NCBI GenBank assembly: GCA_050950285.1
Contig: JBMNHG010000008.1
Coordinates: 558,001 to 622,000 of the forward strand
Reading direction: 5' to 3'
Source: Kiritimatiellia bacterium
GTDB taxonomy: Bacteria; Verrucomicrobiota; Kiritimatiellia; RFP12; JBMNHG01
Length of the DNA: 64,000 bases
The notes beneath the pieces were generated by a model that saw only the letters and a program-made list of their open reading frames with translations, did no database searches and was not told the origin of the DNA. A program made the translations under genes and the position numbers. Below, piece after piece: positions 6,609 through 52,900 of the stretch; position 1 is the stretch's first letter, and each line of letters opens with the position of its first letter.

Positions 6609-8006
6609 ATGAAGAGATCCCTCATGAACAGGCAGGGCTGCCGCAAGGCGCTCGGCTTTCTTTCCGCCTGCCTGGTGGCCTTGGGCGCTTCGGCCATCGA
6701 CATCACAACCGACACGACCGTGACGGGCACGAACATTGCGGCCTACACCGCCGCCGACATCCACATCGCAGAGGGTGCGTCGCTGACGCTTTTGGATCCG
6801 GACATGGACTACACCTTTACGGGTGCGCTCTCGGGCGGCGGCAATTTCGTCTGCAGGGCGGCCTCCGCCGGGGAGAGGCGCATGACGCTTTCAGGGGATT
6901 CGCCCGCGTTCTCCGGCGGCTTCTTTTTCACGAACGTGGCCTTTTACGTGTCGTCGCCTGCGGCCATCGGCAACGCCCGGCAGTTTACGGCCGATTATGA
7001 TGCCGATCTCGATACGCCCATGTCGCAGTGCGTTTTCGACGGACAGGGCGCGTACGACTGCGCATGCGATTTCAAAGTGCAAACCACCTCGTGGCCCAAT
7101 CGCGGCCTCAAGCTCAACCATGTCGATACGGAACTGGCCGGCGCGGTTACGTGGCGCGGCGGCCGCGTTTTCGGTCCCGGCAAGATCACGGGGTATATAA
7201 CGTCCGATGCCTGGCTCTACGCCTCGGGGGACGTTCACATTGCGGGCGGGGCCAGCGTGCCGTCCTGGGCGAAGTTCACCAACGACGGTTCTCCCGTGTG
7301 GATTGACAGCGTCGTGACGGGTCCGATCTGGATCAACCAGAGCACGGTGCACTTCGGTTGCGCAAACGCCCTTCTCTGGGCCGTGGCCTTTTCGGGAGCC
7401 GCAGCAACGCTGGATCTCAACGGGTGGGATCAAAAGATCCTGCTGTATCCGGAATCCAATGTAACCATCACGAGCGAGAAGCCGGCGACGCTCACGCTTC
7501 AGGCGATGTATGAGAATCGGACGCTCGGCAATCTGGACGGAGCCGTTTCCCTCGCCTATCATCCGTGGGAAAGTCCGAACCGAAGCATGACGTTGGCGGG
7601 CGCCAACAATACGACGACCGGGTTTGTCCAGGTGGCGTATTGCGACTGCGAACTCACCTTGGCGAACGGCGTCCGATTTGTCAATGCGGCGACGTTGCGC
7701 GTGTCGTCGGAGGGTTGGCCGAAGCCCCGGCTTGTCGTCCCCGAGAATGCGACCGTCCAGTGCGCAAAGAGCACGCTCGAGATCACGGAGACCGGTCTCA
7801 CGACGGGCGACGCCCGCGTCAGCGTCGGGGCGAACGGACTGCTTGTCGTGAAGAATGCTTCCGTCACCGTCGACGGCGTGACGAGAAATGTCGCGCCGGG
7901 CGACTACAAGGCCGGGAACGGCACGGCGCTTGGCGCCCGCATGCTGGGCACGGGTACGATTCGCGTGTTGTCGGGAAGGGGAGGCACCGCCTTCATCCTC
8001 CGCTGA
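6609..8006 (+). CDS. secreted autotransporter-passenger-like beta-helix protein, no beta-barrel, C-terminal GTAFILR tail
   Basis: ATG 6609 in the 3' part of ORF 2226..8006; signal peptide; 'FTGALSGGGNF', 'TLDLNGWDQ', 'MTLAGANNTTTG' passenger-type repeats. Confidence 0.7.
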   Translation: MKRSLMNRQGCRKALGFLSACLVALGASAIDITTDTTVTGTNIAAYTAADIHIAEGASLTLLDPDMDYTFTGALSGGGNFVCRAASAGERRMTLSGDSPAFSGGFFFTNVAFYVSSPAAIGNARQFTADYDADLDTPMSQCVFDGQGAYDCACDFKVQTTSWPNRGLKLNHVDTELAGAVTWRGGRVFGPGKITGYITSDAWLYASGDVHIAGGASVPSWAKFTNDGSPVWIDSVVTGPIWINQSTVHFGCANALLWAVAFSGAAATLDLNGWDQKILLYPESNVTITSEKPATLTLQAMYENRTLGNLDGAVSLAYHPWESPNRSMTLAGANNTTTGFVQVAYCDCELTLANGVRFVNAATLRVSSEGWPKPRLVVPENATVQCAKSTLEITETGLTTGDARVSVGANGLLVVKNASVTVDGVTRNVAPGDYKAGNGTALGARMLGTGTIRVLSGRGGTAFILR

Positions 8007-8007
8007 T

Positions 8008-10578
8008 ATGAAAAGGCTGCTTCCTCGTTTGTGCGTGTCGCTTGTGGGAGTTGTGTCTGCCTTGTTGTCCCGCGGCGCCGATATCGCCGGCCGCAAGATG
8101 GTCTGGGCGCATTACGTGCCGTGGCATACGCCTGACAATGCGTCGCAGCTTTCCGACCGGTATTATTGTTTCCCGCAGTTTGAACCGGGGTCGGATCCGT
8201 TCCGCGCAGAGGTCCTGCGAGCCCTGGACATGGGCATTGACGGATTCTTCAACGACATGGTGGCGCAGACGGGCGGCGCGCCCGTCTTTTGGGACTTGCG
8301 CCCCTATCTGAAGGCGGCGGAGGGGACGCCGTTCCTGTTCGGCATCTGCCTGGATGCGAAGTCGACGGCCGACCAGCAGGCCAAGGACCTGGTGATGATG
8401 TTGTCGACGTATGGCGACCATCCGAATTACCCGAAGTGGAAGGGCCGCTATGTGGTCGCCACCTACTCGTTCTTCGCCTGGACGCCGGACGAGTGGCGCG
8501 CCATTCGCAAGGGGTGCGCCGATGCGGGATATCCGATAGGGGTGGTCGCCAACATCGAAAGCGGCTTTGACAACTATGACGACAGCCGGCTGGAACCGTA
8601 TCTCGGCACGTTCGAAAGCGCCTATTTCTTTGCCCTGACCGGATGCGCATGGAACGATACGAAGCCACTGGAGCAGGAACAGCGGGAGGCGGCCGACTTT
8701 TGCGCGCGGAACGGCGCGCTGTTCATGCCATGTCTCTGGCCGGGCTATTACGGCGGCTGGCTCTCCGGAAGGAACTGCTTCTATCAGCCGCTGTTGGGTT
8801 TCGACATGTTGCTCCGGCGGTATGGGTGTTCGCGCGCGATAGACACGCCGTGGCTGCATATTACGACGTGGAACGACCACGACGAGACGACGCTCCAGTC
8901 CCGGCGGCTGGCAACGGCCAATCCGGCTCTCATCCGCGCGATGTCTCGCGAGTTCAAGGGGCTGCCGCCGGCAGCGAAGGAAGAGATCGCGTTCGCCTAT
9001 CTGCGAGAGACAATGGCCGGCACGGTTTTGCGCATTGAAGGGATTCGCCTGCCGTCGGCCTCGGCGGAGACTGTGAGTGTCGAGGGGCGCCTGCTGGATG
9101 TGGACGGGAACGCCGTGGCGAGGCTGGCACCCCGAAAGTTGTCGGACAACTGGGAGCGGTGCGAATGGCTGGTGTCGACGACGGCGTTGGCAGCCTCGCC
9201 CGTCCTTGTCCCCGAAGTGACGATCACGCGCGGGAAGGAGGTCCGAACCCTGCAACTTCCAGCGGCATTTCTCGTGACGGGTTTCTTGAAATGCAACGAC
9301 ACCGTGAAAGTTTCCGAACGGGATCGCCGGACCGTCGACAATTCGTTCGCCTTGGATTGGAAGGACGGCATTCTTTCCGGCGAGTGCCAGTTCACGGGCG
9401 ATGCGATGCTGAAGCGGGCCGTCCTCTATCGGAACGAACGTCCGGTAACGGCGTTTGACCACAGGAAGAAGACCGTTCTTCCCGTGCATTTGGGCGGCGT
9501 GAACGACATCGCCCTCAGTGTCGAGAAGGGTCGGATCGAGTGCGCGGTCAAGAGCTTCGAGACGAACGGCGCGCCGCATTTCGCCTGGTCCGACAAGCGC
9601 ATCGAGTCGACCATGACGCCCGGCTGGATGCATCTGACGGCGCGGATCGAAGCGGACGCGTCATCCGTTTTGACGCTGGCCAACAACGATCGGAGCCGTT
9701 CTTTCGGCGTGCCCGAATTGCTGGAGGAAGAGCGGCTGGCCGTCGGGGAAAGCCATGTCCGGCTCGGGCCTGACGGCACGATTTACGATTTGCCGACCCT
9801 TGACCGGAAGAGCGGCCCCGTGTTTTTGTCGGTCTGGATGCCCGCGCCCGAACCGACGGATGCCTTTTGGATCGAATTCGAGTTCGCCGACGGCACGTTT
9901 GCCGAATCGTCGATCCAGTATCCGTTTGCGACGACGCGTGAAGCGATCAGAATGAATGTCGTCGAGACGGCCATCACCCTGGAACATACGACCGGCGCCT
10001 CCGGCACGCCCGACACGACGGTGTTCCTGACGGAGGAGGAAAAGTGGCCCGTTCGCGAGACGAAAGTGGTCGAAGCCCTGGTTTCACCGCTGGCGATCCG
10101 AAACGAACGCTTTGATTTTTCCGGCCAGCCGATGCTGCGTCCGGTGTTGCCGCACCGCCGTTGGCCGATGGGGCCTTTCGCCCTGACGTGCCATTTCACG
10201 CGGCTGGCTGACGATGGGGAAAGCCACCCGGTTTTGATTCGGGAGGGCTGGAACGAAGCTCCGGAACTCAGACTTCTTGCGGACGGACGAATTGAGGCGT
10301 CGTATGGTGGAGGCAGCGGCCGTGGAACCGGAGAATTCGGCTACAACGTCCAGTCGCTGGAGCCATTGGAGATGGGGCGCGAGGCGAGGATTGAGCTGGT
10401 CAACGACGGAAAAAGGTTCAGCCTGCACGTGGATGGCGAATTGCAAGGCGAGGCGATGCTTCCTCCGTTGCGGGCGTATGGCAATCTTACGCCCCGTTTG
10501 GGAGACGGGATCAATGGGAGCGACCCCCAAGTCGGGACTCTTCGCGACGTGAGTTTTTCCGGCCGCCCAGTGCCATGA
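8008..10578 (+). CDS. secreted GH71/GH99-like glycoside hydrolase with C-terminal LamG-like domain
   Basis: ATG 1 nt after upstream stop; signal peptide; VWAHYVPW, MGIDGFF and ITTWNDHDE motifs; C-terminal 'FSLHVDGELQGE...RLGDG'. Confidence 0.65.
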   Translation: MKRLLPRLCVSLVGVVSALLSRGADIAGRKMVWAHYVPWHTPDNASQLSDRYYCFPQFEPGSDPFRAEVLRALDMGIDGFFNDMVAQTGGAPVFWDLRPYLKAAEGTPFLFGICLDAKSTADQQAKDLVMMLSTYGDHPNYPKWKGRYVVATYSFFAWTPDEWRAIRKGCADAGYPIGVVANIESGFDNYDDSRLEPYLGTFESAYFFALTGCAWNDTKPLEQEQREAADFCARNGALFMPCLWPGYYGGWLSGRNCFYQPLLGFDMLLRRYGCSRAIDTPWLHITTWNDHDETTLQSRRLATANPALIRAMSREFKGLPPAAKEEIAFAYLRETMAGTVLRIEGIRLPSASAETVSVEGRLLDVDGNAVARLAPRKLSDNWERCEWLVSTTALAASPVLVPEVTITRGKEVRTLQLPAAFLVTGFLKCNDTVKVSERDRRTVDNSFALDWKDGILSGECQFTGDAMLKRAVLYRNERPVTAFDHRKKTVLPVHLGGVNDIALSVEKGRIECAVKSFETNGAPHFAWSDKRIESTMTPGWMHLTARIEADASSVLTLANNDRSRSFGVPELLEEERLAVGESHVRLGPDGTIYDLPTLDRKSGPVFLSVWMPAPEPTDAFWIEFEFADGTFAESSIQYPFATTREAIRMNVVETAITLEHTTGASGTPDTTVFLTEEEKWPVRETKVVEALVSPLAIRNERFDFSGQPMLRPVLPHRRWPMGPFALTCHFTRLADDGESHPVLIREGWNEAPELRLLADGRIEASYGGGSGRGTGEFGYNVQSLEPLEMGREARIELVNDGKRFSLHVDGELQGEAMLPPLRAYGNLTPRLGDGINGSDPQVGTLRDVSFSGRPVP

Positions 10579-10709
10579 CGCACGGAAAACGAACGACCTG
10601 TTCCCGTGCTTGATGCCAGTCCATCGGCATCCGCAGCGGACTGTCCCCGAGTTTCCCAGAATCCTTGACCGCTTCCGGGGCGATATCCCATAATCGGTTC
10701 CCGTCGCAT

Positions 10710-10742
10710 CTTCAGCATTCCTTAAGGTTGCTCCCGTATGAT
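10710..10742 (+). promoter_or_regulatory. PmrA/QseB-like tandem box plus -10 element upstream of the response regulator
   Basis: CTTCAG-N5-CTTAAG (10710-10726), then 10 nt, then TATGAT (10737-10742). Confidence 0.6.
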
Positions 10743-10771
10743 TCGGTTCCAACAAACGGGGATCGGCGGTC

Positions 10772-11458
10772 GTGAACATTCTGGTTGTCGAGGATTCAAG
10801 GGCGTTGCGCGAGACGCTGCATGACGGCCTCGCCAAGCTGGGCTACGGCGTGGATGCGGCGGGCGACGGCGCGGAGGGGCTGGCCTACGCCCTGGCCAGG
10901 GACTACGATGTGATCGTCCTGGACCTGAAGCTGCCCGGCAAGGACGGACTCTCCGTGCTGCGGGAGCTGCGCGCGGCCGGGAGGAAGACGCACGTCCTGA
11001 TCCTCTCGGCGAAGGACCAGGTCGAGGATCGCGTGCGGGGGCTCCATCTGGGGGCCGACGACTATATGATCAAACCGTTCTCGTTCGACGAGCTGTGCGC
11101 ACGGATCGGGACGCTGATCCGAAGAAGATATGACACCAAGAACCCGCAGGTCGAGATCGGCGGGCTGACCATCGACACGGCCATCCGCGAAGCCCGCCAC
11201 GGCGGTACGGTGATCCCGCTGACGCCCGGCGAGTACGCGATCCTGGAGTTCCTGGCGTTCAACCGGGGGCGGGTCATCAGCGCGGAGCAGCTGCTCGACA
11301 TGGCGCACAACAGCGACGCCGCGCCCGGCGAGAACGTGATACAGGTCATGGTGTGCAACCTGCGGAAGAAACTCGCCGCATCGGGCGCTGCCAACGTCAT
11401 CAAGACCCGCCGCGGCCATGGCTACTACATCGCCCATGAGGGGAACGCGCCAGCGTGA
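10772..11458 (+). CDS. OmpR-family response regulator (PmrA/QseB-like)
   Basis: ILVVED, VLDLKLPG, GADDYMIKPF, C-terminal wHTH (LRKKL...IKTRRGHGY). Confidence 0.95.
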   Translation: MNILVVEDSRALRETLHDGLAKLGYGVDAAGDGAEGLAYALARDYDVIVLDLKLPGKDGLSVLRELRAAGRKTHVLILSAKDQVEDRVRGLHLGADDYMIKPFSFDELCARIGTLIRRRYDTKNPQVEIGGLTIDTAIREARHGGTVIPLTPGEYAILEFLAFNRGRVISAEQLLDMAHNSDAAPGENVIQVMVCNLRKKLAASGAANVIKTRRGHGYYIAHEGNAPA

Positions 11459-12675
11459 AGACACGCACGCCGCTCGCGCGCATCCCGTCCGGCATCTGGG
11501 TGCTTGGCCTGGTCAGCCTGTTCATGGATGTCTCCTCCGAGATGATCCACAGTCTGCTTCCCCTGTTTCTGGTCGGGACACTGGGCGCAGGCACCGTCAT
11601 GGTCGGCCTGATCGAAGGGCTGGCCGAGTCAACCGCGCTCGTCGTGAAGGTGTTTTCCGGTGCACTGAGCGACTACCTGGGCAAGCGCAAGGCGCTGGCG
11701 GTGGCCGGGTATGCATTGGGCGCCCTGAGCAAGCCCTTGTTCGCTATCGCGCCGACAGCGGGGACCGTCCTTTCGGCGCGCCTGCTGGACCGGATTGGAA
11801 AGGGCATTCGGGGTGCCCCGCGCGATGCGCTGGTGGCGGACCTTGCGCCGGCCGAGATGCGGGGGGCGGCCTTTGGCTTGCGCCAGTCGCTCGACTCGGC
11901 AGGCGCGTTTCTCGGCCCCCTGCTGGCGGCCGGCCTGATGTTGCTCTGGGCCGACAATTTCCGGGCCGTGTTCTGGGTCGCCGTCCTCCCCGGCCTCCTG
12001 TCGGTGCTCCTGCTGCTGTCCGGCGTGCATGAACCGGAACGGCAGGTTTGCGGCAGGCGCACCAATCCGATCCGCCGCGAGAACCTCGAGCGCCTGGGCG
12101 GTGCCTACTGGTGGGTCGTCGGCATCGGCGCGGTATTCGCGCTGGCGCGCTTCAGCGAAGCCTTCCTGGTGCTCCGGGCCCGGGAGAATGGCGTGCCGAC
12201 CGCCTGTGTGCCGCTGGTGATGGTGATCATGAACACGGTCTACGCGGCATCCGCCTATCCATCCGGACGGCTGGCGGACAGCGTGAACCACGAAAGGCTT
12301 CTGTCCTGGGGGCTGCTGATGCTCGTGGTCGCCGATGTGGTATTGGGCTTGGCAAGCCGGTGGCCGCTCACGGTGGCTGGCGTGTCCCTGTGGGGCGTGC
12401 ACATGGGGATGACCCAGGGACTGTTCGCCAAGATGGTCGCCGATGCCGCCCCGGCCGATCTGCGCGGCACGGCCTACGGATTCTTCAACCTCGTCGGCGG
12501 GATCGCCGCGCTGGCGGCCAGCGTTGTCGCGGGAGGACTTTGGGCGCGGCTGGGGGCGTCTTCCACCTTCTATGCCGGAGCGGGTTTTGCCGCCCTTGCA
12601 CTGGCGGGGCTTGCGCTGAAAAACCGTTCCCCCGGGCGCATGACCGGACGCCCGCGGGGTTTGCGAACACCATGA
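11455..12675 (+). CDS. MFS transporter
   Basis: Multiple TM segments; GALSDYLGKRK motif A; DRIGKGIRGAPRDAL; GTGA overlap with the RR stop. Confidence 0.9.
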   Translation: MKTRTPLARIPSGIWVLGLVSLFMDVSSEMIHSLLPLFLVGTLGAGTVMVGLIEGLAESTALVVKVFSGALSDYLGKRKALAVAGYALGALSKPLFAIAPTAGTVLSARLLDRIGKGIRGAPRDALVADLAPAEMRGAAFGLRQSLDSAGAFLGPLLAAGLMLLWADNFRAVFWVAVLPGLLSVLLLLSGVHEPERQVCGRRTNPIRRENLERLGGAYWWVVGIGAVFALARFSEAFLVLRARENGVPTACVPLVMVIMNTVYAASAYPSGRLADSVNHERLLSWGLLMLVVADVVLGLASRWPLTVAGVSLWGVHMGMTQGLFAKMVADAAPADLRGTAYGFFNLVGGIAALAASVVAGGLWARLGASSTFYAGAGFAALALAGLALKNRSPGRMTGRPRGLRTP

Positions 12676-14156
12676 AATCCATCCGCGAATATCTCCGCAC
12701 GCGCGTGCTGCTGGGATCCGCCGTGATCCTGGCCGCGGGGTTCGCCGTGCTGGCGCTGGCCATACGCCGCCTGGACATCCATGAGTTTGACCAGCATCTG
12801 GAAGACAGGGCCCGGCTGCTGGCCTCGCAGATGAAACGCGAGGGCAACTCCCTCGTGTTCGTCCTGAACCGCGAGTACTGGCCGGAGTTCCAGACGGAAG
12901 CGGTGCTCGGCTATTTCCAGTTCCGGTTTACGGACGGCTCGGTCATCCTCCGTTCCGAAAGCCTCGGCGACGGAGACTTGCCGCTGCTGCCGTCCGTAGC
13001 CGGCAAGCCGTCCATCATCAACACCCGTCTGCCGGATGGCCGCCGCGGCCGCATGATCCAGTTTGCCCTGACACCGCAAACGTGCGAGACGCATGTGGAA
13101 ATCCATGGAGCCGGGAACCCGGATGCCTTCCATGTTCCCATCCCCGGCGCGCTGCAGGCGGAATCGTCCATTGCCGTCCTCGGCTTCGCCCACAGCCGCG
13201 AGAAGCTCGACGCCCTGCTGCTGACCGTCTATCTGACGCTTGCCGGCATGGTACTGCTCATCCTGGGCCTGATTGCCATCCTGTTGCGCCGGGTGCTGCG
13301 CCGCGGCTTCCTTTCCATCGAGGAGATGAACGCGCAGATCCGCGGGCTCGGGCCGGAGGACATGCGCCGACGCGTGACCCTGGCGACGGTTCCCGGCGAG
13401 CTCGAGGCCGTCGTCTCCTCGCTGAACCAGTTGCTCGACCGGCTCGATACCTCGCTGCAGCATGAGAGGCGCTTCATCAGCGACGTGGCGCACGAGCTGC
13501 GCACGCCCGTGGCGGAATTCCGGGCGGCATGCGAGGTGGGCGGGAAGTGGGCCGACGATCCGGCGCTGGTAGCGCGGCGCTTCGCGAATCTCCGCGAATC
13601 GGCCGCCAACATGGAACAGATGCTCAACGATCTTCTCGATCTCAGCCGGCTGGACAGGGGCGCGGTGCAGATATCCCCGGTGTCCACCGGCATGGCGGCG
13701 CTCGCGGATTCCTGCTGGGCGCGCGTCTGCAGCAGCGGCGCCGGCACGGGGCACCCGTTCGAGAACCGCATCGACCGCGCACTGCGCCTCGCCATCGATC
13801 CGCCCAAGCTGGAGCAGATTGTATTCAACCTTCTGGACAACGCGGCACAGTACAGTCCGCCCGGGGCGGCGGTTGTCTGCACCGGCGAACTGGACGGAGG
13901 ACTATGGGAGCTGTGCTTCAGCAATCCCGTGCAGGATCTCGAACAGAAGGATCTCGAGCACCTCTTCGAGCGCTTCTGGCGCAAGGATGCGGCCCGTACG
14001 GCGGGCGGGCATGCCGGGCTGGGGTTGTCCATCGTCGAGGCCCTCGCCGGGGCGCTGGGCATCCGGGTCGCAGCCGACCTCGCCGGCAACGGGGTTTTCA
14101 CCATCCGCCTCCGGTTCCCCGCCCGGGCATCCATGCAGGGGTGCGATTCAAAATAG
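12672..14156 (+). CDS. sensor histidine kinase (PmrB/QseC-like)
   Basis: ATGA overlap with MFS stop; two TM segments, HAMP, H-box AHELRTP, NLLDNA, GLGLSIV. Confidence 0.93.
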   Translation: MKSIREYLRTRVLLGSAVILAAGFAVLALAIRRLDIHEFDQHLEDRARLLASQMKREGNSLVFVLNREYWPEFQTEAVLGYFQFRFTDGSVILRSESLGDGDLPLLPSVAGKPSIINTRLPDGRRGRMIQFALTPQTCETHVEIHGAGNPDAFHVPIPGALQAESSIAVLGFAHSREKLDALLLTVYLTLAGMVLLILGLIAILLRRVLRRGFLSIEEMNAQIRGLGPEDMRRRVTLATVPGELEAVVSSLNQLLDRLDTSLQHERRFISDVAHELRTPVAEFRAACEVGGKWADDPALVARRFANLRESAANMEQMLNDLLDLSRLDRGAVQISPVSTGMAALADSCWARVCSSGAGTGHPFENRIDRALRLAIDPPKLEQIVFNLLDNAAQYSPPGAAVVCTGELDGGLWELCFSNPVQDLEQKDLEHLFERFWRKDAARTAGGHAGLGLSIVEALAGALGIRVAADLAGNGVFTIRLRFPARASMQGCDSK

Positions 14157-14174
14157 TTGAATCACAAAGGCGCG

Positions 14175-14317
14175 AGGGTTCAGGGTTCAATCCTAAACTT
14201 TGTCGCGAGCTTTGCCGGTAACTTTGTCGCCTTCGTCGAAAGCAACAGGGAAAGCCCACGCGAAGCCGCAAAGCCGCAAAGAGTTCTAAAGTTCGGGAGT
14301 TCTAAAGTTCTAAAGTT
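14175..14317. repeat. cluster of four different short tandem repeats
   Basis: AGGGTTC x2; AACTTTGTCGCG-like 12-mer x3; CGCAAAGC-like 8-mer x3; AGTTCTAA-like 8-mer x4. Confidence 0.8.
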
Positions 14318-14388
14318 AGAGGCCTGCGCCTGTACCGAACCACCCCGTCAGCCGCGCCAGCGCAAGCTCACGGTACAGCGAACCGGAA

Positions 14389-14648
14389 GGTAGGGCGAGC
14401 CGCCTGTCATACGTAGCCTTGGCGAAGTATGGTCCCCGTCACGCCGCTACGCGGTGTGACCGGCGAGCCGTGCACAAGGCATTGTAACGCCAACCCCGCC
14501 AATTCCGCCACCTATCCGCCCTTGCGGGAGCGGCCCCAGAGTGGCGCGGACATTCCTGTCTGCGCACGTCCACGAGGGCAGACAGGAATGTCTGCCCCAC
14601 ACTACCACGCTCCATCGCTGCGGCTAGCCGGGACGGCGTCGCCCCACC
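14389..14648. repeat. nested REP/REPIN-like inverted repeats
   Basis: Outer arms 14389-14470 (interrupted) and 14621-14648; inner pair GTGGCGCGGACATTCCTGTCTGCGC (14541-14565) / GGGCAGACAGGAATGTCTGCCCCAC (14576-14600). Confidence 0.75.
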
Positions 14649-14765
14649 TGTGCTGGCGCGCCTTTGCCGGAGCATTCCCGGCACTCGACGACAGCCGACG
14701 ACAATCAACGACAATCGTCAACGACGGGCAACCGGTAGATAAGCCCCCTTCCCCAAACTATGTCC

Positions 14766-14906
14766 CGCCCCTACAGGGCTAGTCGTCTTTGCCCCTTTCC
14801 CCAGGGCGTTGCCCTGGGCTGGTATGTTTCGCCCCTTCAGGGCTTGCATATGAGCATAGGCACGCGGCATGTCGAAAGTAACCGGGGACGAGCAGACGCT
14901 CGTCCC
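14766..14906. repeat. REP-like palindromic elements
   Basis: CGCCCCT(A/T)CAGGGCT x2 flanking the CCCAGGGCGTTGCCCTGGG hairpin; GGGACGAGC-AGAC-GCTCGTCCC hairpin (related copy at 25938-25957). Confidence 0.7.
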
Positions 14907-15112
14907 TCCCGACCGGACGCCCGGTACCGCCGCCTACACCTAAATTAGGCCACCCCGCGCGGCGCACTACGTGCGCAAGCGGTTTTGCGCGGCCTGGCCG
15001 CGCTTTCTTTCCCGCCCCCTGCGGCGGCAGATGCCGTCGCGGCCGTGTCGGCCGCGACGGATGTACCCCATACCCGCTCATGCCGCCTGCAAGAACGTCT
15101 GTCCCCCGGCCA

Positions 15113-15240
15113 GAGTACCGCCTTCAGGCGGAAGTGGTTCAGGGGCTTCAGCCCCGTTCCCATGCCCCCTTTTTTCATGGGAAAAAGGGCTTCGCGGGCC
15201 TGAAGGCCCTTGTTGACTTCCGGCTGAAGCCGGTACTCCG
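15113..15240. repeat. REPIN-like inverted repeat
   Basis: GAGTACCGCCTTCAGGCGGAAG (15113-15134) / CTTCCGGCTGAAGCCGGTACTC (15217-15238), with internal GGGGCTTCAGCCCC and GGGCCTGAAGGCCC hairpins. Confidence 0.75.
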
Positions 15241-15413
15241 ACCCGACTGCGAACCCCATGCAAGGAACAGTACGCATAGCCCATGCCTGCCGCCAAGCTG
15301 ACCCTATTGACGAGGTTTCCCGCTGCGCGGGCGCATAAATCGACCTTGCTGACCCTATTGACGGGCTGGTGCCTGGGCGTGAGCTACTGTCAATCTCGTC
15401 AATAAGGTCATCT

Positions 15414-16867: not shown

Positions 16868-16896
16868 CGCCCTCACTCCTCCTCCATCGCCGAATG

Positions 16897-17081
16897 GAAG
16901 CCGCTCAACACGTTGCCTGGGTTGTCCTCGTTCATGTCTTCATTACTCCCTTGCTCTGCTGATCAGTCCGATCCGTCCAATCAGACGGATCATGAGTTGT
17001 GTTCACTTGACCAGCCCTTTCTCGACGTTGCGGAAGGCGTTGTGAGCCGCGATCTTCACCTCATCGGAAACTAGCGGGAAG
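16897..17081. repeat. 185-bp direct repeat of 18855-19039 (MTase 3' end, spacer, Mrr-N 5' end)
   Basis: Near-identical copy at an offset of 1958 bp. Confidence 0.92.
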
Positions 17082-18893: not shown

Positions 18894-18960
18894 GTCTTCA
18901 TTACTCCCTTGCTCTGCTGATCAGTCCGATCCGTCTGATCAGACGGATCATGAGTTGTGT

Positions 18961-38626: not shown

Positions 38627-38717
38627 GGCGACCTCGTTTGGGGGTTTGGCGAGTGGCGGAAATCGGGAACGCACCGGCCTCCGCCGCCGCGTAAAAGGGA
38701 TGGGGAGGGTTCGATTC

Positions 38718-42381: not shown

Positions 42382-42427
42382 CGTGGACGGCGTAAGGCGG
42401 GGTGGACGCGACGGGTGCGGTCCGGCG

Positions 42428-43714: not shown

Positions 43715-43731
43715 GGTGTTTCTGCCGGGGG

Positions 43732-46620
43732 CTAGGGTGCTTCCTTCGCCTCGGGCGAGTCGGGATATCGGGCGCGGAGCTGGGAGAGGTATTGGGCGGC
43801 CTTCCCTTCTTCGCCGGCACGGGCCCAGGCGCGGGAGAGCATGAGCAGGGCGCGGGGCTTGAACTCCTCGTACCCGTAGAGGATGTCGACCTTGAGATAG
43901 GCCTTGGCGGCGTCGGTCCAGCGTTCGGCCTCGAAGTGGAGGTCGCCCTGGCCGAGGATGGCCTGCGCGGCTTCGGCGGATTCGTGATCGGTGGCGACCG
44001 CGGCGGCGTAGGCGTCCATGGCGTCGGCGGCGGCGCCGGAGGCGCGCAGGCTGTGTCCCTTGCCGAGGAGCGCGGCGGCATACCGTCCTCCCTCGGCCGG
44101 GTTTTCGAGGATCTTCGAATAGGCGGCGATGGCGTCGGCGTGCCGTCCTGCGGCGCGGAGGGATTCGGCGCGGAGGAAGAGGGCGCGTCCGGCGAAGGCT
44201 TCGTCGGCCACGCCTTCCAGCGCGGCCGCGGCCTCGTCGGGACGCCCGAGTTCCGCAAGGAGCTTCCCTTGGAGGTAGCGCGCCTCGCCGGCGAGCTCGC
44301 TGTCCGGGAAATCGCGGGAAAGGCGGCGGAAGGCCTCCAGCGCGGCCTCTTTTTCGTCGAGGTGCGTTCGGGCCCAGCCGAGCTTGTAGAGGAGCTTGTC
44401 GGCAAAGGGCAGGTCCGGGATGGCGAGGGCGGCCTCGTAGTCCTTGGCGGCGTCGGCATGGCGTCCGGCGTCGAAGGCGATTTCGCCCAGGCGGAAGCCG
44501 GCGTCCGCCTCGAGTTCCCCGCCCGGATGGCGTCCGACCAGGTCGCGGAAGCGGGCTTCGCCGGCTTCGGTCTCGCCGCGTTCGAGGGCGATCCACGCCC
44601 AGTCGTAGCGGGCCTGCGGTGCGAGCGGGTGGTCCGGATGCGCCTTCAGGAAGGCATCGTAGAGGGGATCGGCGGCGTCCCAGTCCTGCAGGCGGTAGAG
44701 GCAGGAGGCGTGGCGGAAGGCGGAGTCCGCGGCGCGGGGCGAGCCGGGGAAGCGCCGGGCGAAAGCGGCCTGCCGCCGGGCGGCCTCGTCGAACTTGCCG
44801 GCGTCTTCCAGCGAACAGGCGGCCCACCACAAGGCTTCTTCCGAGCGCCCGGGCACGTCGTCGTCCGCGACGGGCGCGAAGGCCGCCGCGGCTTCGTCGA
44901 AACGCTCCAGCGCCCGCAGCGCGAAGCCGGCGCCCAGCGCGGCGTCCCGGGCGGTTCCGTCGGCCTCGCCGGCCTGGCGATAGGCTTCCAGCGCCTCCTC
45001 GAAGCGTTCCAGCGCCATCAGGGCGTCCGCGGCGTAGAGGCGGGCGAAGGGGGCGAGGTCGCTCTGCGGGAACTCCGTGGCGGCGCGGTTCGCGAAGGCG
45101 AGCGCCTCGTCGAAGCGTCCCGCTTCCAGCGAACGCCGCGCAAGCTCGGCCAGGGCGCGGGGCGCGAAGTCGCTTTTCGGGGCGACGTCGAGGAGGCGGC
45201 GGTAGGCGGCTTCCGCGGCGTCGCGCTCCCCTGCGGCGTCCGAAGCGGCGGCCGTACGGAAGATGGCTTCGGCGGCGAGCGGGCTGTCGGGATGGAGTTC
45301 CGCCAGTTTCGCGAACGCGTCGCGCACGGCGGCGGGGTCGGACGGCTCGCGGCGGAGTTCGCAGGTCCCGAGGCTGTACAGCAGGTCGGCGGGAGGCTTC
45401 TCCTCCGGCGGAAGCGCGGCGAGGTGGGCGCGGAAGGCGTCGGCGGCCTCGGCGGGGCGATCCAGTTCCAGGAGGCTGTAGGCGAGGATCTGCCGGATTT
45501 GCGGTGCGCGGGAGTCGTCCGGGAAGTCCTTCAGGAAGGCGGCGGCGCTTTCGGCGGCTCCGGCGTGGTCGTTCTCGTTCCAGCGGGCGAAGACCGGGTC
45601 GCCGGCCGAACGGGCGCGGAAGAGGTCGCGCCAGCGTTCGGCCTCGGCGCGGGTCCCGGCATCGGCCGCTTCCGTCTTCGCCACGGTGTCGAAGGCGTCG
45701 GCGGCCTTGACGGGCTCCCCTGCCGCGGCGAAGGCGTGGCCGGCGTTCATGCGGCAGACCACCGTGCGCGCATCGTCCGGGTCCAGCTGCGCGGCTGCGG
45801 CGAGGAAGGTTTCGGCCGCCTCGGCCGAACGCCCGAGGGCGTGGAGCGAGAAGGCCCGGCCGATGCGGGCCTCGCCGCCCAGCGGGGGCGGGGCATCGAG
45901 CAGGCCGGCGTAGGCTTCGGCCGCGGCTTCGTGGCGTTCCAGTTCGCGGAGGCCGTCCGCGGTCCGGAGGCGGCAGCGGGGCGTCTGCGGGTCGTCGGGG
46001 AAGCGTGCGGCGAAATCCTGGTAGGCCTCGACGGCCGCGGCGGTGTCGCCGGTCTTCGAGAGCGCCTCGGCGCGCAGGAAGCGGAGGTGCGAAGCGTACT
46101 GCCCCTCCGGTTCGGCGGCGAGGAGCTCGTCGGCGGCCTTTGCGCACTCCGCCCATTGTTCGGACTGGAAGAGCGAATCGGCCCAGCCGATGCGGGCGGC
46201 CGCCGCGAGGGGGCTCTCGGGCGCTTCGCGGAAAACGGCCGCGTAGTGCCCGGCCGCTTCTCGGGGAGCCTCTTTCGAGGAAAGACGGGCCAGCCAATAG
46301 TGGGCCTCGGGAACGCGCGGGGAATCGGCCCGCTCGCGAAGCAGGCGCTCGAAGATGGGTCCGGCCTCCGCAGGACGATCGGCCTGGGCGAGCGATTCGC
46401 CCCAGCGGTACAGGGCGGTGTCCAGCTCGGCGAAATCCGGATGATCCCGCACGAGCTTCTGGAACTCGTCCGCCGCGAGAGACGGCTCGCCGCGAATCAG
46501 GAGCCCCGTCGCGAAGTTGAATTGCTCCACGGCATCGGTCGCCGCCGCCAGCGGAAGCGCGGCAAGCAGCATGCCGCCAAAGAGCCAGGAACGCATGCGG
46601 GAAGGAAAGGGAAAGGACAT
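43732..46620 (-). CDS. secreted tetratricopeptide-repeat protein
   Basis: Signal peptide; many TPRs ending in 'P.SP.A.EA.Y' motifs. Confidence 0.88.
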   Translation of the reverse strand: MSFPFPSRMRSWLFGGMLLAALPLAAATDAVEQFNFATGLLIRGEPSLAADEFQKLVRDHPDFAELDTALYRWGESLAQADRPAEAGPIFERLLRERADSPRVPEAHYWLARLSSKEAPREAAGHYAAVFREAPESPLAAAARIGWADSLFQSEQWAECAKAADELLAAEPEGQYASHLRFLRAEALSKTGDTAAAVEAYQDFAARFPDDPQTPRCRLRTADGLRELERHEAAAEAYAGLLDAPPPLGGEARIGRAFSLHALGRSAEAAETFLAAAAQLDPDDARTVVCRMNAGHAFAAAGEPVKAADAFDTVAKTEAADAGTRAEAERWRDLFRARSAGDPVFARWNENDHAGAAESAAAFLKDFPDDSRAPQIRQILAYSLLELDRPAEAADAFRAHLAALPPEEKPPADLLYSLGTCELRREPSDPAAVRDAFAKLAELHPDSPLAAEAIFRTAAASDAAGERDAAEAAYRRLLDVAPKSDFAPRALAELARRSLEAGRFDEALAFANRAATEFPQSDLAPFARLYAADALMALERFEEALEAYRQAGEADGTARDAALGAGFALRALERFDEAAAAFAPVADDDVPGRSEEALWWAACSLEDAGKFDEAARRQAAFARRFPGSPRAADSAFRHASCLYRLQDWDAADPLYDAFLKAHPDHPLAPQARYDWAWIALERGETEAGEARFRDLVGRHPGGELEADAGFRLGEIAFDAGRHADAAKDYEAALAIPDLPFADKLLYKLGWARTHLDEKEAALEAFRRLSRDFPDSELAGEARYLQGKLLAELGRPDEAAAALEGVADEAFAGRALFLRAESLRAAGRHADAIAAYSKILENPAEGGRYAAALLGKGHSLRASGAAADAMDAYAAAVATDHESAEAAQAILGQGDLHFEAERWTDAAKAYLKVDILYGYEEFKPRALLMLSRAWARAGEEGKAAQYLSQLRARYPDSPEAKEAP

Positions 46621-46837
46621 GGGTTGTCTCCGTCGAAAGATAGCGGAAGTATGCCATAGTCCCACGCGCCTTTGCGAGACGAAAGGGCGCCGGGAACGAC
46701 GCTCCCATCCGTTTCGCGGCAGGGACGGCACAGCCGCCCGGCGCCTGCCTTTCCGTTTGCAGGCTCCAGCGTCTTGGAATATGATGAAGCCAATGGACGT
46801 TCAGATGTCGTGAAACGTTGATGAGGAGGTCTTGACC

Positions 46838-47854
46838 ATGAACCGGAAAAATGTCGTGGGTGCGCTGGTGCTTCTCGCCCTCTCCGCTGCGGCGAACGTC
46901 CGCGCGGAAACCCTCTCGGGCTCCGCGAATCCCGTCCGCTACGAGAATCCCTTCCAGGGGAACTACGCCGCCGAGGTGGACCCGAGGGTTCACTTCCGCT
47001 TCCCCACATGGCTGAACAATGCGGTCTCCTACCATTCCGGTTCCAGCGATTCCATCGTCACGGAGAACGGCGATTTGGAGACGAACGACGCCTGGATTTC
47101 CCTTTCCACCGCCGACGGCTCGCGTTTCAAGGCAGGCACCCTCCTCCACTCCAATGTCTCCAATGCCGGATACGACCGAAGCCTTGCCTACGAAATCTTC
47201 GTCGGGAACTTGTTCGTGGGCTCCTTCGAGATGGACATCGGTTCGCCCCGCGCCTATTTCCTGGACGAACTGGAGTATGCAACGACAACCACGAACCTCT
47301 TCGTCCAGTTCACGTCCATGCCCGCATGGCAGTCCGAAACCTTCCGGCAAGGCACCCTCACGCTGGTCCACCCCATCCCGGACCGCCTGCGGAAACTGGA
47401 CATGACCGTGGCAAGCTCTTCGTTCGATGCCGCAACCGACTGGTACGATGGCCTTCCAAGCCACATGCTGAACCTGTTCCCGGATAAAACCTGGCAGGAT
47501 GACGGACGAGAGCCCGCAGGCGAGTACTGGACCGTCCTGGACATCGCGGACGGCCCCAAAACCATCGATGCCATGCTCGTACAGAACCGCAACATGGCAT
47601 ATCAGTCCGAGGATATCGAAATCTTCGCGCCGGACGGGAACGGCGGCTGGACATCGATCGTCAAGATCGACGACCTCGGCGACAGCCGGTACACCATCTT
47701 CCGGCTGACGTCTCCCGTCACCGTCTCGCAACTTCGCATCGAAATCCCCGACACGGATCCCCTGGATGCCTACGGACGGCGATACGTCGCCACGTTCATG
47801 GTCTTCGAGGTCCTGCCCGACAAGACCCGCGGAACGCAGCTGATGCTCTTCTGA
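46838..47854 (+). CDS. secreted hypothetical protein (possible discoidin-like C-terminal domain), C-terminal GTQLMLF tail
   Basis: GAGGAGG RBS; signal peptide ending AANVRA; 'PVTVSQLRIEI'. Confidence 0.7.
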   Translation: MNRKNVVGALVLLALSAAANVRAETLSGSANPVRYENPFQGNYAAEVDPRVHFRFPTWLNNAVSYHSGSSDSIVTENGDLETNDAWISLSTADGSRFKAGTLLHSNVSNAGYDRSLAYEIFVGNLFVGSFEMDIGSPRAYFLDELEYATTTTNLFVQFTSMPAWQSETFRQGTLTLVHPIPDRLRKLDMTVASSSFDAATDWYDGLPSHMLNLFPDKTWQDDGREPAGEYWTVLDIADGPKTIDAMLVQNRNMAYQSEDIEIFAPDGNGGWTSIVKIDDLGDSRYTIFRLTSPVTVSQLRIEIPDTDPLDAYGRRYVATFMVFEVLPDKTRGTQLMLF

Positions 47855-47952
47855 CGGCCGCCGGAAGCCGTCGTCGGCACGCTTCGCCATGTTTTCGCGG
47901 GCGTCGCGCGGGGCTGCACGCGCAGGTCTCCCATGGCGACGGGGATTGCGGT

Positions 47953-50900
47953 TTATGGGACGATGGCGATCTGCAGATGTTCCACGGGGGAGCGGAGGGT
48001 CTGCTTGCGCTCGCCCCAATCGTCGTCGGCGACGAGGAAGGAGACGTCGGGTTTCCCCGAGGCGGGGACGCGGAATTCGTAGCGGGTTTTCTCGCGATGG
48101 CGCGCGATGCGAATCGGAGAAACGGGCTTGTCGTCCAGGACCATCCATGCGGCATCGCCGGGGGAGGCGCCGTCGATGGCGGGCCCGGAATCGGCGCCGG
48201 TCGGACGGTGCGTGTCGTCGGTCACCTCGAGAATCGCGATCAGCTCGCGGTTGTCGGTCCTGAACCACGCTCCGGCGGAAAGGTCGGATGGTCCGCTCCA
48301 CCAGCGCGTGGCGTCCGGCTGCCCGACGAAGCGGTTTTCCACATCGTCCGCGAAGACCAGATCGGGCGTGGTCCCTTCCCAGGCGATGGATGCGTCCGCG
48401 ACGGGGCGACGCCACGAGAGGACGGCATGTTCGGAGGCGAGCACCCTTCCGTCGGGGTCAAGGAGGCGGACGAGAAGGGTCGATCCGGGGTTGTCGCCAC
48501 GGTCGTATCGAGCGAGTTCGGCGGGGCCGCCACTCAGCAGTTTCCAGCCTTGCGACCCACTCCGCACCCGTACCGCGACGATGTTGAGTCCGTGCCGGAG
48601 CGTCACGGGGAAGACATGGTCTGCAAGGGTGAAGCGGCCGCCTTGGTTCCCGTTTTCAAGCGTGTCGTAGACGCGGATGCCGTTGACGAACCATTCCATC
48701 CACCAGTCTGCCGCGGCGCCGACGTTCACGGCGAGGTCTTCCGCGGCGGTGATGGCGGCGACGAGCAGAACCGGCGCGTGCTCGCGCACGCCGCCGCCCG
48801 CTTCCGCGAGGTCGAGAAGCCCTTCGGCGTTGGCTTCCATTTCGATGCCGCGTACGCCTTCCACGATTTCGGGCACATGGTCCAGCGTCGTGGGATCGGC
48901 GTTTTCCGGGAGATTGAAGAAGGCGCGCCAGCGTCGTGGCCAGCGGATGTCCGGCGCATGCGCCTTCGTCCGGACCGTGGCGTCGAGGCGCGCGCTTCCG
49001 CCTGCGGGGACGGTGAACGGCGCAGGGGCATCGACGGAGGCGATGCCGCTTTCGGTTCCGGGGACGAAATCGAGACGGAGCTCCATGGACTTGTCCGAGG
49101 GGTTTTCGACGGTGATGGGGAAGGTGTCCGTCGCATCCGAGGCAAGGCACAACGGGAGGGGCAGGTGCAGCGGCGTCGGGGCGAACGACGGGGGTGCGGC
49201 ATCGGCAGGCGCATTCCAGCGGACGAAGACCGGATCGGGGGAAAGCGGCACGGCGACAGTGCCGGGGGAGAGGAAGCCGAGGGGCGCGATATTGCCGAAG
49301 AGATCGCAACGCGTTGGATGGGATGCGCCTTCGCCCAGATGCAGCGGCCGAAGGGTGGTCTCGTTGTCGGACCATGCAACGACGATGTGGCGGCGCGCGT
49401 CGGCATCGGCGAACCAGTGCGCTTCCGCGCCGGCGGGGAGTGCGTTGGAGAGCGAGGCGCGATGGGTCGCATGGCGAAGGTTCCGGACGGTCGTGCGGTA
49501 GGCAAGAATGACGGGGCGTGGCTCCTCGAGAGAGCCGTTGAGGGAGCTGTAGTTGGCATCGCCTCCGCCGATGAGAAGGCGGAACCAGTGGAACAGCTTC
49601 AGTCCGGCGGACTGGGCATACACGAGCTTCTGGACGGCAGTACGCGCCTGGATGCGCTGCTGCATGGGCGTGAAGGCGGCAAATCCCGATTCTGTCCCGG
49701 CGCAGGGCCGCTCCGGGCGATCGGCGGCGCGGGCCGCCTCGAGAAGCCTGTTGTGCGCGGCGCGTTCGGCGGCGGCGCCGGGCCCGTGCCCGTGGTATGC
49801 CCAGACATCGAGAAGGTCGAGCGGAAGGATTTCGACGAGCCGCCGGGCGCGGCGCGCGCCTTCTTCCCCGGCAAAGCACAAGCCGCCGTTCATGACGATG
49901 GCGGACGGCGTTGCCTCCTTGATGGCGCGGGCGATGGTTGCGAAACCATCGGCGTATGCCTCGGGGGGGCCGGGGTAGAAGAACGTGAGATCCGGCTCGT
50001 TGCCCAGTTCCCAGAAGGCGCGCCCGTCGGGATCGTAGCGGCGCGCCTGGGCGGCGGCGAGGGCTGCGCGGCGGAGGTTTTCGGCATGGCGCGCGTCGGG
50101 GTCGTCATGCCAGGCGATATCCATGAAAAAATAGGGGCGGAAGCCGTAGCGTCCATGCAGGGCGGTTGCGCGGGCCATTGCGTCCTCGTCGTCCTGGTCG
50201 CACCCGAAACCCCTGAGGATGTCGGCGCCCATGAAATCGGCCCACTTCCAGAAGCGCTCGTCGGAGAATCCGTTGCAGGGGTCGACGCCGTAGAAGAATT
50301 CGCCGTCGCGCGCGCGCGGGAGGGGGTCGCGGTCGCTGGCCATGAGCATCACGGCGCGCGAAAGGATCGGGGCGGCATCGCCGTCGGTATCAGGGCGCAC
50401 TTCGATGGCGAGCCGGTAGACGCCCTGGGGAAGGCGCGTGGCGTCGAAGGCGATGGCGATTTCGTCGTCGGCACCGGCGGCGAGAGTGCGGCGGATCTCG
50501 AAGGTTTCGACGGGGTTGTCCAGGTCGTCGGAAAGAACACCCGAACAACGCGCGGGGAAATCGACGCGGGCGAGATTCCGGAAGGCCAGGCGGATGGGAT
50601 GGGAAACGCCTGTTTCAAAGACGAACATGTCGCGGTCGGCGCGCAGGCCGTCGAAGCGGATCAGGCGATGGAAGTCCGGATCGGAGTCCAGGGGATATCC
50701 GCGCACCCATGCGGCGCGAATCTGCGCAGGGCCGGAACAGGCTCCATAGCGCAGGTCGACCCCGTTGGCGGGCAGTTCCTTCGGGTCGATGTCCGATGGC
50801 GAGCGGGCGAAGCGCGCGGTGTCGGTCCAGGCGTAGAAGAGGTCCCACTCCGGGAAGTTCCCCCACCCCGATCCGATGCGGACGGAGCCTTCGGCGGTGT

Positions 50901-52020
50901 CGGCGGAGAGCCAGATCGGGGCGTTAGGCTCGTGGCGTTTGTAGATCCGGATGTCGGCGACAGGGCGGCCCCCATGCTGGAAGCGTTTGGACGTGACATC
51001 CAGCAGCACGCTGTTCCACCAGGGGTCCGATCCGAAATGTGCGCCGTTGGCCTCCCAGTAGTGGACCGTTGCGCCGTTGGAGGACATTTCCTTGGGCTGG
51101 ATCGCCTCGCGCCGGAAATCGAGGCCATGCAGGACGGGATCGCGGTTGAAGAGGACGAAGGCGTCCTCCTCGGTGGCGACGGCGACAAGGGTTTCGTCGG
51201 CGGGCCCCTCGCGCTCCGCGGCCTCGAAGGCAAGCCGGACGCGGTAAGGGTCGGCGGGGAGGCCGTGCAGGGGCAGCGTAACGGGGATGCCGGAATCGGC
51301 GGAGGCCGGGAGAGAGGCCTCGACGGCGCCCGATCCTCGCTCTTTGCCCATGAGGGTGAGAAGCGTCCAGCGGAGGTTTCCCTGGACCTCGACGGGATTG
51401 GCGTTGCGCAGGGTCGCAACGAGCGCAAGCGACGCCTCCGGCCCCGGTTCGGCGACGAGCCCGGACGGCCCCCCGTCTACGGACGCAACGGAAACCGACT
51501 TCGCCCAGTTGGCGGGATTCGCGGGCGAAGCGTCGCTCACGACCACGCTATGGACGGCGAAATCGGCGGCCCATGCCTTCACGAAGAGGTCCGGATTCTC
51601 CCCGCCTTCGCCGAAGCGCGGCGATTCGATGCGCGCGTGGAGGGGTTTCCAGTCGCGCGAATTGCCCCAGGAGGAGGCGACCTTTTCGAAGCCGTCCGCA
51701 GTGTTGGCCCAGAGTTCGACCGCCGTATTGCCGGGATGGTGGAAAAGCACGTCGACTTCTACCGCAGGGGCGTCCCCGCCGCGAAGCGCAGGATCGGTTA
51801 CGTCGAGGAAAAAGCCACGCAGCCAGGGGTCTCCCGGGACGGAGTCGTGCGCGGAAATCCAGGCGTCGCGCCCATCCACGGAACCGGCGGGGCCGCATGT
51901 GCGCCGCGCCAGCTCCATGCCGTGGAACTCCGGTTCGGCACGAAAGACGACCGATGCGGCCGGAAGGGATGCGGCGATCGGGAGGAGCGCAAGCAGGATG
52001 GAGCGGAAGGGGCGTGTCAT
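47953..52020 (-). CDS. large secreted clan GH-A (GH39-like) glycoside hydrolase
   Basis: Signal peptide; WELGNEPD acid/base, AYHGH, GTESG nucleophile region; additional beta-sandwich domains. Confidence 0.65.
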   Translation of the reverse strand: MTRPFRSILLALLPIAASLPAASVVFRAEPEFHGMELARRTCGPAGSVDGRDAWISAHDSVPGDPWLRGFFLDVTDPALRGGDAPAVEVDVLFHHPGNTAVELWANTADGFEKVASSWGNSRDWKPLHARIESPRFGEGGENPDLFVKAWAADFAVHSVVVSDASPANPANWAKSVSVASVDGGPSGLVAEPGPEASLALVATLRNANPVEVQGNLRWTLLTLMGKERGSGAVEASLPASADSGIPVTLPLHGLPADPYRVRLAFEAAEREGPADETLVAVATEEDAFVLFNRDPVLHGLDFRREAIQPKEMSSNGATVHYWEANGAHFGSDPWWNSVLLDVTSKRFQHGGRPVADIRIYKRHEPNAPIWLSADTAEGSVRIGSGWGNFPEWDLFYAWTDTARFARSPSDIDPKELPANGVDLRYGACSGPAQIRAAWVRGYPLDSDPDFHRLIRFDGLRADRDMFVFETGVSHPIRLAFRNLARVDFPARCSGVLSDDLDNPVETFEIRRTLAAGADDEIAIAFDATRLPQGVYRLAIEVRPDTDGDAAPILSRAVMLMASDRDPLPRARDGEFFYGVDPCNGFSDERFWKWADFMGADILRGFGCDQDDEDAMARATALHGRYGFRPYFFMDIAWHDDPDARHAENLRRAALAAAQARRYDPDGRAFWELGNEPDLTFFYPGPPEAYADGFATIARAIKEATPSAIVMNGGLCFAGEEGARRARRLVEILPLDLLDVWAYHGHGPGAAAERAAHNRLLEAARAADRPERPCAGTESGFAAFTPMQQRIQARTAVQKLVYAQSAGLKLFHWFRLLIGGGDANYSSLNGSLEEPRPVILAYRTTVRNLRHATHRASLSNALPAGAEAHWFADADARRHIVVAWSDNETTLRPLHLGEGASHPTRCDLFGNIAPLGFLSPGTVAVPLSPDPVFVRWNAPADAAPPSFAPTPLHLPLPLCLASDATDTFPITVENPSDKSMELRLDFVPGTESGIASVDAPAPFTVPAGGSARLDATVRTKAHAPDIRWPRRWRAFFNLPENADPTTLDHVPEIVEGVRGIEMEANAEGLLDLAEAGGGVREHAPVLLVAAITAAEDLAVNVGAAADWWMEWFVNGIRVYDTLENGNQGGRFTLADHVFPVTLRHGLNIVAVRVRSGSQGWKLLSGGPAELARYDRGDNPGSTLLVRLLDPDGRVLASEHAVLSWRRPVADASIAWEGTTPDLVFADDVENRFVGQPDATRWWSGPSDLSAGAWFRTDNRELIAILEVTDDTHRPTGADSGPAIDGASPGDAAWMVLDDKPVSPIRIARHREKTRYEFRVPASGKPDVSFLVADDDWGERKQTLRSPVEHLQIAIVP

Positions 52021-52096
52021 GCGCAGGGGCGTCAAGGGGAACGGCCGCCGGGACGGCCAGGAGCATTCCGGTGCGGAGCCGGCCGTGGCGGCGCGT

Positions 52097-52900
52097 CTAG
52101 CGGAGGATGAACACGGTGCCCGCCGGGGGCTGGTAGTAGGGGACGACATCCTCGGCGGCGGTTCCGAGGCGGATGTCGTCATAGCGCGCCTCGGTGTCTT
52201 GCCCGTTCTGCACGAAGACGAAGTTGCGGAAGGTCAGGTTGCCTTGGACGGTCGATGCCGGCGCATCCGTGGGCTGCCAGCACGAGAGGTCCGGGTTGTA
52301 CCAGAAATGGATGGCGTCTGCGTCGTTCCCGCCGAAGTCGATGCGGAAGACGACGAGCGCGATGGCGCCGACGGATCCGAGGTTGGGGAGTTGGAGTTCG
52401 GTCGAGCGCGTGCTGGAGGCGCCGTCCTGCTCCTGAAGCCAGAGGTGTGCGCAGTTGGAGGCGCTTTGCAGGAGGAAGCTTCCCCAGAGCGTGGCGCCGT
52501 CGGCACCCACGCAGGCGTATCCGGCGGAGTTGACGACCCGAAGCCCGGCCTGATCGAACACGCCGCCCTCGACGAGGTCGAGCGTACGCTGCGCGTAATT
52601 GAAGTTGGGGCCGCCGTAGCCCGCAGCGAGGTTGAGGTAGTTGCCGCCGGAAAGGGCTGGCTCGGTTTCCGGGGTGTATCCCGCGTAGGAGAAGGAGTAG
52701 ATATTGTCGCGGACCTGGTTCATGTAGCCCTGGCCGGGGCAGCCTGCGGACCAGGCTCCGAGCCATCCCGATGCACCGTTCTGTCCATGGAGGTTGCAGT
52801 CGGTAGGGTAGTCGAAGTTCTCGTATGCGAGAAGATCGGCATGGGCCGCGCCGGAGGCGGCGAGGACGATGGCCGCGGATAGCAGCAGCGTTTGTTTCAT
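52097..52900 (-). CDS. secreted protein resembling PEP-CTERM-type cargo, C-terminal GTVFILR tail
   Basis: Signal peptide, ADLLAYENFDY, ends YDDIRLGTAAEDVVPYYQPPAGTVFILR. Confidence 0.75.
   Translation of the reverse strand: MKQTLLLSAAIVLAASGAAHADLLAYENFDYPTDCNLHGQNGASGWLGAWSAGCPGQGYMNQVRDNIYSFSYAGYTPETEPALSGGNYLNLAAGYGGPNFNYAQRTLDLVEGGVFDQAGLRVVNSAGYACVGADGATLWGSFLLQSASNCAHLWLQEQDGASSTRSTELQLPNLGSVGAIALVVFRIDFGGNDADAIHFWYNPDLSCWQPTDAPASTVQGNLTFRNFVFVQNGQDTEARYDDIRLGTAAEDVVPYYQPPAGTVFILR

Follow-up and report, generated by a model that had tools for sequence, protein, structure and literature searches.

The window analysed here, a stretch of 64,000 nucleotides from a Kiritimatiellia genome (G000), raises the question why three predicted secreted proteins with different bodies end in almost the same seven residues, and what such an ending might do. 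The initial annotation had interpreted this tail as a lineage-specific terminal beta-strand that is recognised by an outer-membrane export or attachment machine. The matter bears on an open question in the Verrucomicrobiota, namely how large glycan-binding proteins pass the outer membrane.

The tails of the window and their enrichment at protein ends

The three heptapeptides, each directly followed by a stop codon, are read from the sequence exactly where the initial annotation had placed them (Table 1). Their carriers of 460, 338 and 267 aa exhibit no BLAST similarity to each other, such that the bodies are indeed unrelated, and each begins with a signal-peptide-like stretch, in agreement with the secreted nature claimed for them. 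The passenger-like repeats supposed in the 460-aa protein, however, are not supported by any match to the PATR model, and a 1,926-aa open reading frame over the first tail proved to be a wrong-frame extension, the called gene encoding 460 aa. The tail GTQLMLF is atypical, Arg being terminal in 72 of the 79 curated tails described below. Gene calling on G000 yielded 2,431 genes (83% coding), with some genes missed.

Table 1. Tails, carrier genes and neighbouring genes in the window (position 1 is its first letter), and loci of a repeated tagged protein in G000
Feature	Position	Strand	Basis
Tag GTAFILR and stop	7983..8006	+	read off sequence
460-aa predicted secreted protein, tag carrier	6624..8006	+	gene call; no family match
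Tag variant GTQLMLF and stop	47831..47854	+	read off sequence
338-aa predicted secreted protein, carrier of the tag variant	46838..47854	+	gene call; no significant family match
Tag GTVFILR and stop	52097..52120	-	read off sequence
267-aa predicted secreted protein, ConA-like lectin/glucanase jelly-roll, tagged	52097..52900	-	gene call, model, homologs
Context: 1,301-aa secreted CBM9-like / FlgD-Ig / propeller protein, directly upstream of the 460-aa tagged gene	2365..6270	+	
Context: GH71/GH99-like protein, untagged, directly downstream of the 460-aa tagged gene	8011..10578	+	weak sub-cut-off Pfam
Context: 1,355-aa secreted protein, untagged, directly downstream of the 267-aa tagged gene	47953..52020	-	
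Loci of the 212-217-aa tagged protein, G000	C2:213195-221427, C3:258268-265655, C3:405121-411050, C2:801547-805352, C8:548189-550686		

Concerning its frequency, the motif as formulated in the initial annotation coincides with the protein end in 58 of the 2,431 proteins of G000, whereas offsets of 1-10 positions give only 0-1 matches; the tail is thus commoner than expected by chance. A looser expression matches 69 protein ends, compared to 0-3 at offsets 1-15 and to 0.9 expected from the internal rate, with four near-identical repeat copies and one membrane protein among the 69. Leaving these out and adding 15 proteins hand-picked from a profile ranking resulted in the curated set of 79. In a genome of another order (G266), 22 of 1,166 genes end in the motif vs. 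0-2 at the offsets, a count that covers 1.57 of about 3.1 Mb and includes one protein resembling a ribosomal protein. When the codon pattern was scanned over 301 genomes of the phylum against a reversed control, a clear excess, judged by inspection, was confined to the class Kiritimatiellia, as the initial annotation had supposed in calling the tail lineage-specific. Within the class, it is strong in the families f4, f5, f25, f7 (genus g41) and, in part, f20, whereas the counts in f9, f12, f13 and f15 equal those of the control.

The 79 curated proteins fall into 40 clusters without BLAST connection among them. Signal peptides, scored by a heuristic of our own that is also positive for 25% of the other proteins, are found in 68 of the 79 tagged proteins vs. 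577 of the 2,352 remaining proteins of G000 (odds ratio 19), such that the enrichment proposed initially as a check is indeed present. A later membrane helix occurs in none of the 79, and their median length is 995 aa as opposed to 358 aa. The domains of the cargo are of surface types (choice-of-anchor Q, beta-helix, LamG, F5/8, PKD, PATR); in G000, PATR is carried by one tagged protein and a T5SS/PEP-CTERM-associated repeat by another. Two gingipain-like (C25-type) peptidases of G000 are tagged as well (C8:383152-385809 and C8:755155-758766), the former exhibiting below-cut-off similarity to the T9SS sortase PorU.

That the tail arose by chance, or is a repeated DNA element translated as protein, has a practically negligible probability. 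A few tail copies do stem from a duplicated cassette, and two gene pairs have identical ends; however, the positional controls in G000 and G266 refute this reading, and the tail recurs in unrelated clusters and in other families. Furthermore, the 24-mers of DNA encoding the tail are distinct in 77 of 79 cases, synonymous third codon positions vary, and the downstream DNA is unconserved, so that the constraint lies on the peptide and not on the DNA.

A secreted protein of 212-217 aa, with the tag or a remnant of it at its end, occurs repeatedly in G000 directly upstream of large proteins of a repeated family (Table 1). These large proteins are untagged, and some of them possess YD/RHS-like repeats; the small tagged protein may be an export adaptor acting in trans.

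Form of the tail and its predicted structure

The curated tails follow the consensus G-T-[LIV]-[LFI]-[LIF]-[LVI]-R, often preceded by Pro, with Arg or Lys terminal in 76 of the 79. Other families exhibit the form G-[TS]-[VI]-F-x-I-R, in which positions -4 and -2 are predetermined by the search expression; 11 of 20 such tails have a polar residue at -3, with -5 remaining hydrophobic, a pattern that would fit a short two-faced strand, not a helix. The best 15-residue hydropathy of the tagged proteins (median 1.07) lies far below that of the PEP-CTERM proteins of G000 (2.2-2.5), and the initial judgement that the tail is too short for a membrane helix was correct. A structural model of the 267-aa protein based on 50 sequences (pLDDT 91.9) consists of a ConA-like jelly-roll ending near residue 252, followed by an unstructured last block (pLDDT 56), and the tag appears to lie outside the predicted folded domain. 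An earlier model from four sequences was of low confidence.

A terminal, strand-like heptapeptide with Gly is reminiscent of the beta-signal of outer-membrane proteins, the consensus of which, as read by BamA/BamD, ends in an aromatic residue. The tail might be a minimal version of it, directing passengers without a barrel of their own to the housekeeping BamA. Some cargo does carry passenger-type repeats, no autotransporter barrel (PF03797, controls positive) was detected in G000, and the BamA of Kiritimatiellae has an atypical end: that of the window (63302-64000, the gene running past the window) ends in ...WIGFD, without a terminal aromatic, as do three of four relatives checked; its closest BamA relatives (55% and 48%) are labelled Kiritimatiellae. 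This explanation is nevertheless very unlikely, since the tag ends in Arg, with 77 of the 79 tails lacking a terminal aromatic, and is situated on soluble domains without a barrel, many of them not beta-helical; the same BamA ending is found in relatives lying outside the tail counts, and the presence of the second Omp85 does not track the tail, by which it is also rejected as reader.

Position shared with PEP-CTERM and comparison with known systems

The 267-aa protein has two homologs (46% and 42% identity) in which a PEP-CTERM module occupies exactly the position of the tag. Among the ends of 154 homologs, classified by regular expression, 85 are PEP-CTERM, 7 the tag, 6 an Ig-like F-[FY]-R module and 56 other, although the search profile contained two PEP-CTERM rows and may favour PEP-CTERM matches. 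The 56 other ends include, by eye, T9SS-CTD-like, dockerin-like and MYXO-CTERM-like ones and two further variants of the tag. These ends support the view that the tag would be interchangeable with known export or anchor modules at one C-terminal position. About 29 further secreted proteins of G000 possess, by eye, an Ig-like C-terminal module whose last strand closes with F-[FY]-R and resembles the core of the tag; this module is a second candidate for export.

The counts of tail and PEP-CTERM are anticorrelated over 60 Kiritimatiellia genomes (rho -0.55) and over 20 family medians (-0.50), values inflated by kinship and by selection, the panel having been hand-picked from earlier tail counts. 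PEP-CTERM matches range from 0 to 7 (median 2) in 19 tail-rich genomes and from 0 to 46 (median 8) in 34 tail-poor ones; some genomes of the panel are poor in both. In the tail-rich genomes G218, G324 and G373 (92-95% complete), neither exosortase nor PEP-CTERM was found, and exosortase can thus be dismissed as the general reader. G000 itself possesses exosortase, and TIGR02595 has five matches elsewhere in this genome.

The same data bear on the possibility that the tail is a processing signal, i.e., that the protein is cleaved close to Gly-Thr by a protease or transpeptidase and thereby joined to a lipid or a component of the wall, the tail being a helix-free relative of PEP-CTERM or GlyGly-CTERM and a CPBP/Rce1-type membrane protease the candidate enzyme. 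The Pro-rich linker with the following G-T-hydrophobic stretch resembles, and aligns with, the first half of PEP-CTERM, and the anticorrelation of the two modules would be expected; Rce1-like proteases are present in five of five tail-rich genomes, and one of those in G000, with weak myxosortase-like matches, adjoins pilC and pilin genes. However, these proteases also occur in 11 of 14 control genomes and are thus near-universal, and the sortase-type signals known so far have a membrane helix, which the tail lacks. Besides exosortase in the three genomes mentioned, a rhombosortase over the cut-off (TIGR03902) was not found in any of five tail-rich genomes, nor a C25/PorU-like peptidase in the tail-rich G065, G071, G149, G161 and G203, such that both drop out as readers; the latter peptidase is tagged in G000 and common in tail-poor families. 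Altogether we regard processing as unlikely, although it is, together with the retention discussed below, the chief alternative to the preferred reading.

Comparison of 12 tails with the models of Pfam and NCBIfam gave no useful match, and no sorting domain of these collections was matched on 33 whole tagged proteins; the search for a known sorting signal, recommended in the initial annotation, was thus negative, and no description of the tail was found in the literature searched, which lay outside subscription journals and supplements. The tail is real, lineage-specific and unmatched to any described family.

Despite general similarities to several known systems, there are clear differences. 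PEP-CTERM/exosortase (TIGR02595, TIGR04178; PMC1569441) likewise involves a module at the extreme C-terminus of many unrelated signal-peptide proteins; position on homologous domains and Pro-rich lead-in are shared, whereas the tag lacks the PEP motif, the membrane helix and the basic cluster (no match of TIGR02595 or the PEP motif on the 12 tails or 33 proteins) and is abundant in the three genomes in which exosortase and PEP-CTERM were not found. In GlyGly-CTERM/rhombosortase and MYXO-CTERM/CPBP, small C-terminal sorting domains are related many-to-one to a processing enzyme; these domains possess a membrane helix (10.1101/2023.06.07.544157), unlike the tag, which also lacks an invariant Cys and comes without a rhombosortase over the cut-off in the genomes searched.

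The CTD of T9SS shares with the tag Sec-exported cargo, a terminal hydrophobic strand (the motif of strand beta7) and a basic residue (PMC11285876), and some homologs of the 267-aa protein bear CTD-like ends. In the predicted structure, however, the tag would follow directly after the cargo fold, with no Ig domain of 70-90 residues before it; no T9SS CTD model matched the tails or the 33 whole proteins, the sole PorV-like match, below cut-off, is an ordinary FadL porin, and the distribution of the PorU-like peptidase does not follow that of the tag. A search for SprA gave no match, but its control was silent too.

A precedent for strand pairing is the PilC/PilY1 plug: a stretch of 12 residues at the C-terminus of PilC, unstructured alone and carried by large surface proteins exported via Sec, is bound by PilK through strand augmentation (10.64898/2026.09.18.752573). 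The plug is confined to a single adhesin family, which possesses a beta-propeller, whereas the tag is spread over about 40 unrelated clusters, and PF05567 (PilY1 propeller) matched none of the 33 tagged proteins; in a genome-wide PilY1 search the controls were silent. Furthermore, the PilX-like pilins of these genomes end, on sequence inspection, in three predicted strands like GspK and thus appear to supply their own last strand, filling the PilK plug position themselves.

Candidate readers and a possible route

Concerning the machine that reads the tail, the profiling against peptidases and outer-membrane proteins that the initial annotation had suggested did not succeed, as none of six candidate readers tracks tail presence. 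Besides those treated above, small Ig-fold lipoproteins occur in 2 of 12 genomes of family f4 and also in tail-poor families, and the CBM9-FlgD-propeller family, queried with one sequence, is found in 10 of 74 genomes and was not found in nine tail-rich genomes of g5, g41 and g16, so that it is no universal reader. In G000, proteins of this family (about 1,300 aa) comprise the copy of the window and 21 paralogs; 9 of these 22 genes lie next to a tagged one, compared to 16% for other large secreted proteins, and close homologs exist in Planctomycetes, Verrucomicrobia and Lentisphaeria. The neighbourhoods of low-copy tails (20 loci in eight genomes, five of the loci not being protein ends) contained no shared dedicated gene, and inspection by eye of the G000 orthologs in about half of G266 (591 reciprocal matches, 108 of them hydrophobic in an N-terminal stretch) did not bring out a clear reader. 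A GspK search (PF03934) had many matches in frames of 700-870 aa; 10 controls were positive as well, and the search is uninformative.

The envelope inventory of G000 comprises six secretins, several pilin cassettes, two BamA-like Omp85 and one TpsB; an Amuc_1102-like gene is indicative of the Verrucomicrobiota. What tail-rich genomes share are class-wide items: BamA, a secretin of Amuc_1098-like type, matched in all of 30 genomes, and a large PilX-like pilin, present in 52 of 60 (among them 18 of the 19 tail-rich ones). In three genomes of genus g41, secretin and pilin are separated by no more than about 7 kb. As secretin and pilin are also present in tail-poor genomes, their presence does not single them out.

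The tail might also act only after export, as a retention handle docking on a surface receptor or scaffold, or on the outer leaflet by an Arg-phosphate contact, and thereby holding lectin-like proteins. It stands in for an anchor (PEP-CTERM) and, by eye, for dockerin-like ends in homologs; moreover, G000, G071 and G373 yielded no TonB-dependent receptor, so that surface glycan capture must differ there. Against this, conserved Gly-Thr and the occurrence of Lys, Glu or Ser at -3 favour a protein reader over lipid insertion, and the receptor candidates (small Ig lipoproteins and the CBM9-FlgD-propeller family) do not track the tail. Retention is in our opinion rather improbable. G000 lacks a detected TonB-dependent receptor despite many gene clusters for glycan use.

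From the initial interpretation, the restriction to a lineage, the enrichment on secreted proteins, the lack of a helix and of model matches, the predicted location outside the fold and the interchangeability with known modules have stood. The tail very probably serves for sorting or docking in one way or another, and it is likely an undescribed address label of the cell surface. Directly supported are the tag itself and its statistics, its alternation with PEP-CTERM in homologs and its occurrence in genomes where no exosortase was found; the anticorrelation with PEP-CTERM, the exosortase-free tail-rich genomes and the list of excluded readers are added here. Quite possibly, and this is the reading that we tentatively prefer, export or display is brought about by strand pairing between the tag and an envelope protein, the likely partner being part of a class-wide secretin/pilin machine. 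Tagged proteins would be exported by Sec and then remain soluble in the periplasm without a membrane anchor, where the tag would pair as a beta-strand with an envelope component; a route via the Amuc_1098-like secretin and the large PilX-like pilin cassette would then export or display the cargo.

It is doubtful, though conceivable, that this extends to a plug-and-play system of the Kiritimatiellia, in which any folded lectin, adhesin or enzyme would become pilus-like secretin cargo via a seven-residue strand. PEP-CTERM/exosortase would have been displaced in several lineages, and the system may replace SusC/SusD glycan capture without TonB-dependent receptors. If true, few portable signals for export or display in two-membrane bacteria would be as small as this helix-free heptapeptide, with which about 3% of the proteome ends. 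By sequence alone, the tag would make the surface proteome of this class, most of which is uncultured, predictable; it constitutes a peptide bait for finding the machine and could serve as a minimal display tag.

Tagged proteins adjoin, by eye, untagged FGE-sulfatase-like (lectin-fold) genes at C2:726087-729406 and C3:844011-847441 of G000 and at locus L049. The cluster at C3:844011-847441 also contains, by eye, reverse-transcriptase-like and HRDC-like genes, as in a diversity-generating retroelement.
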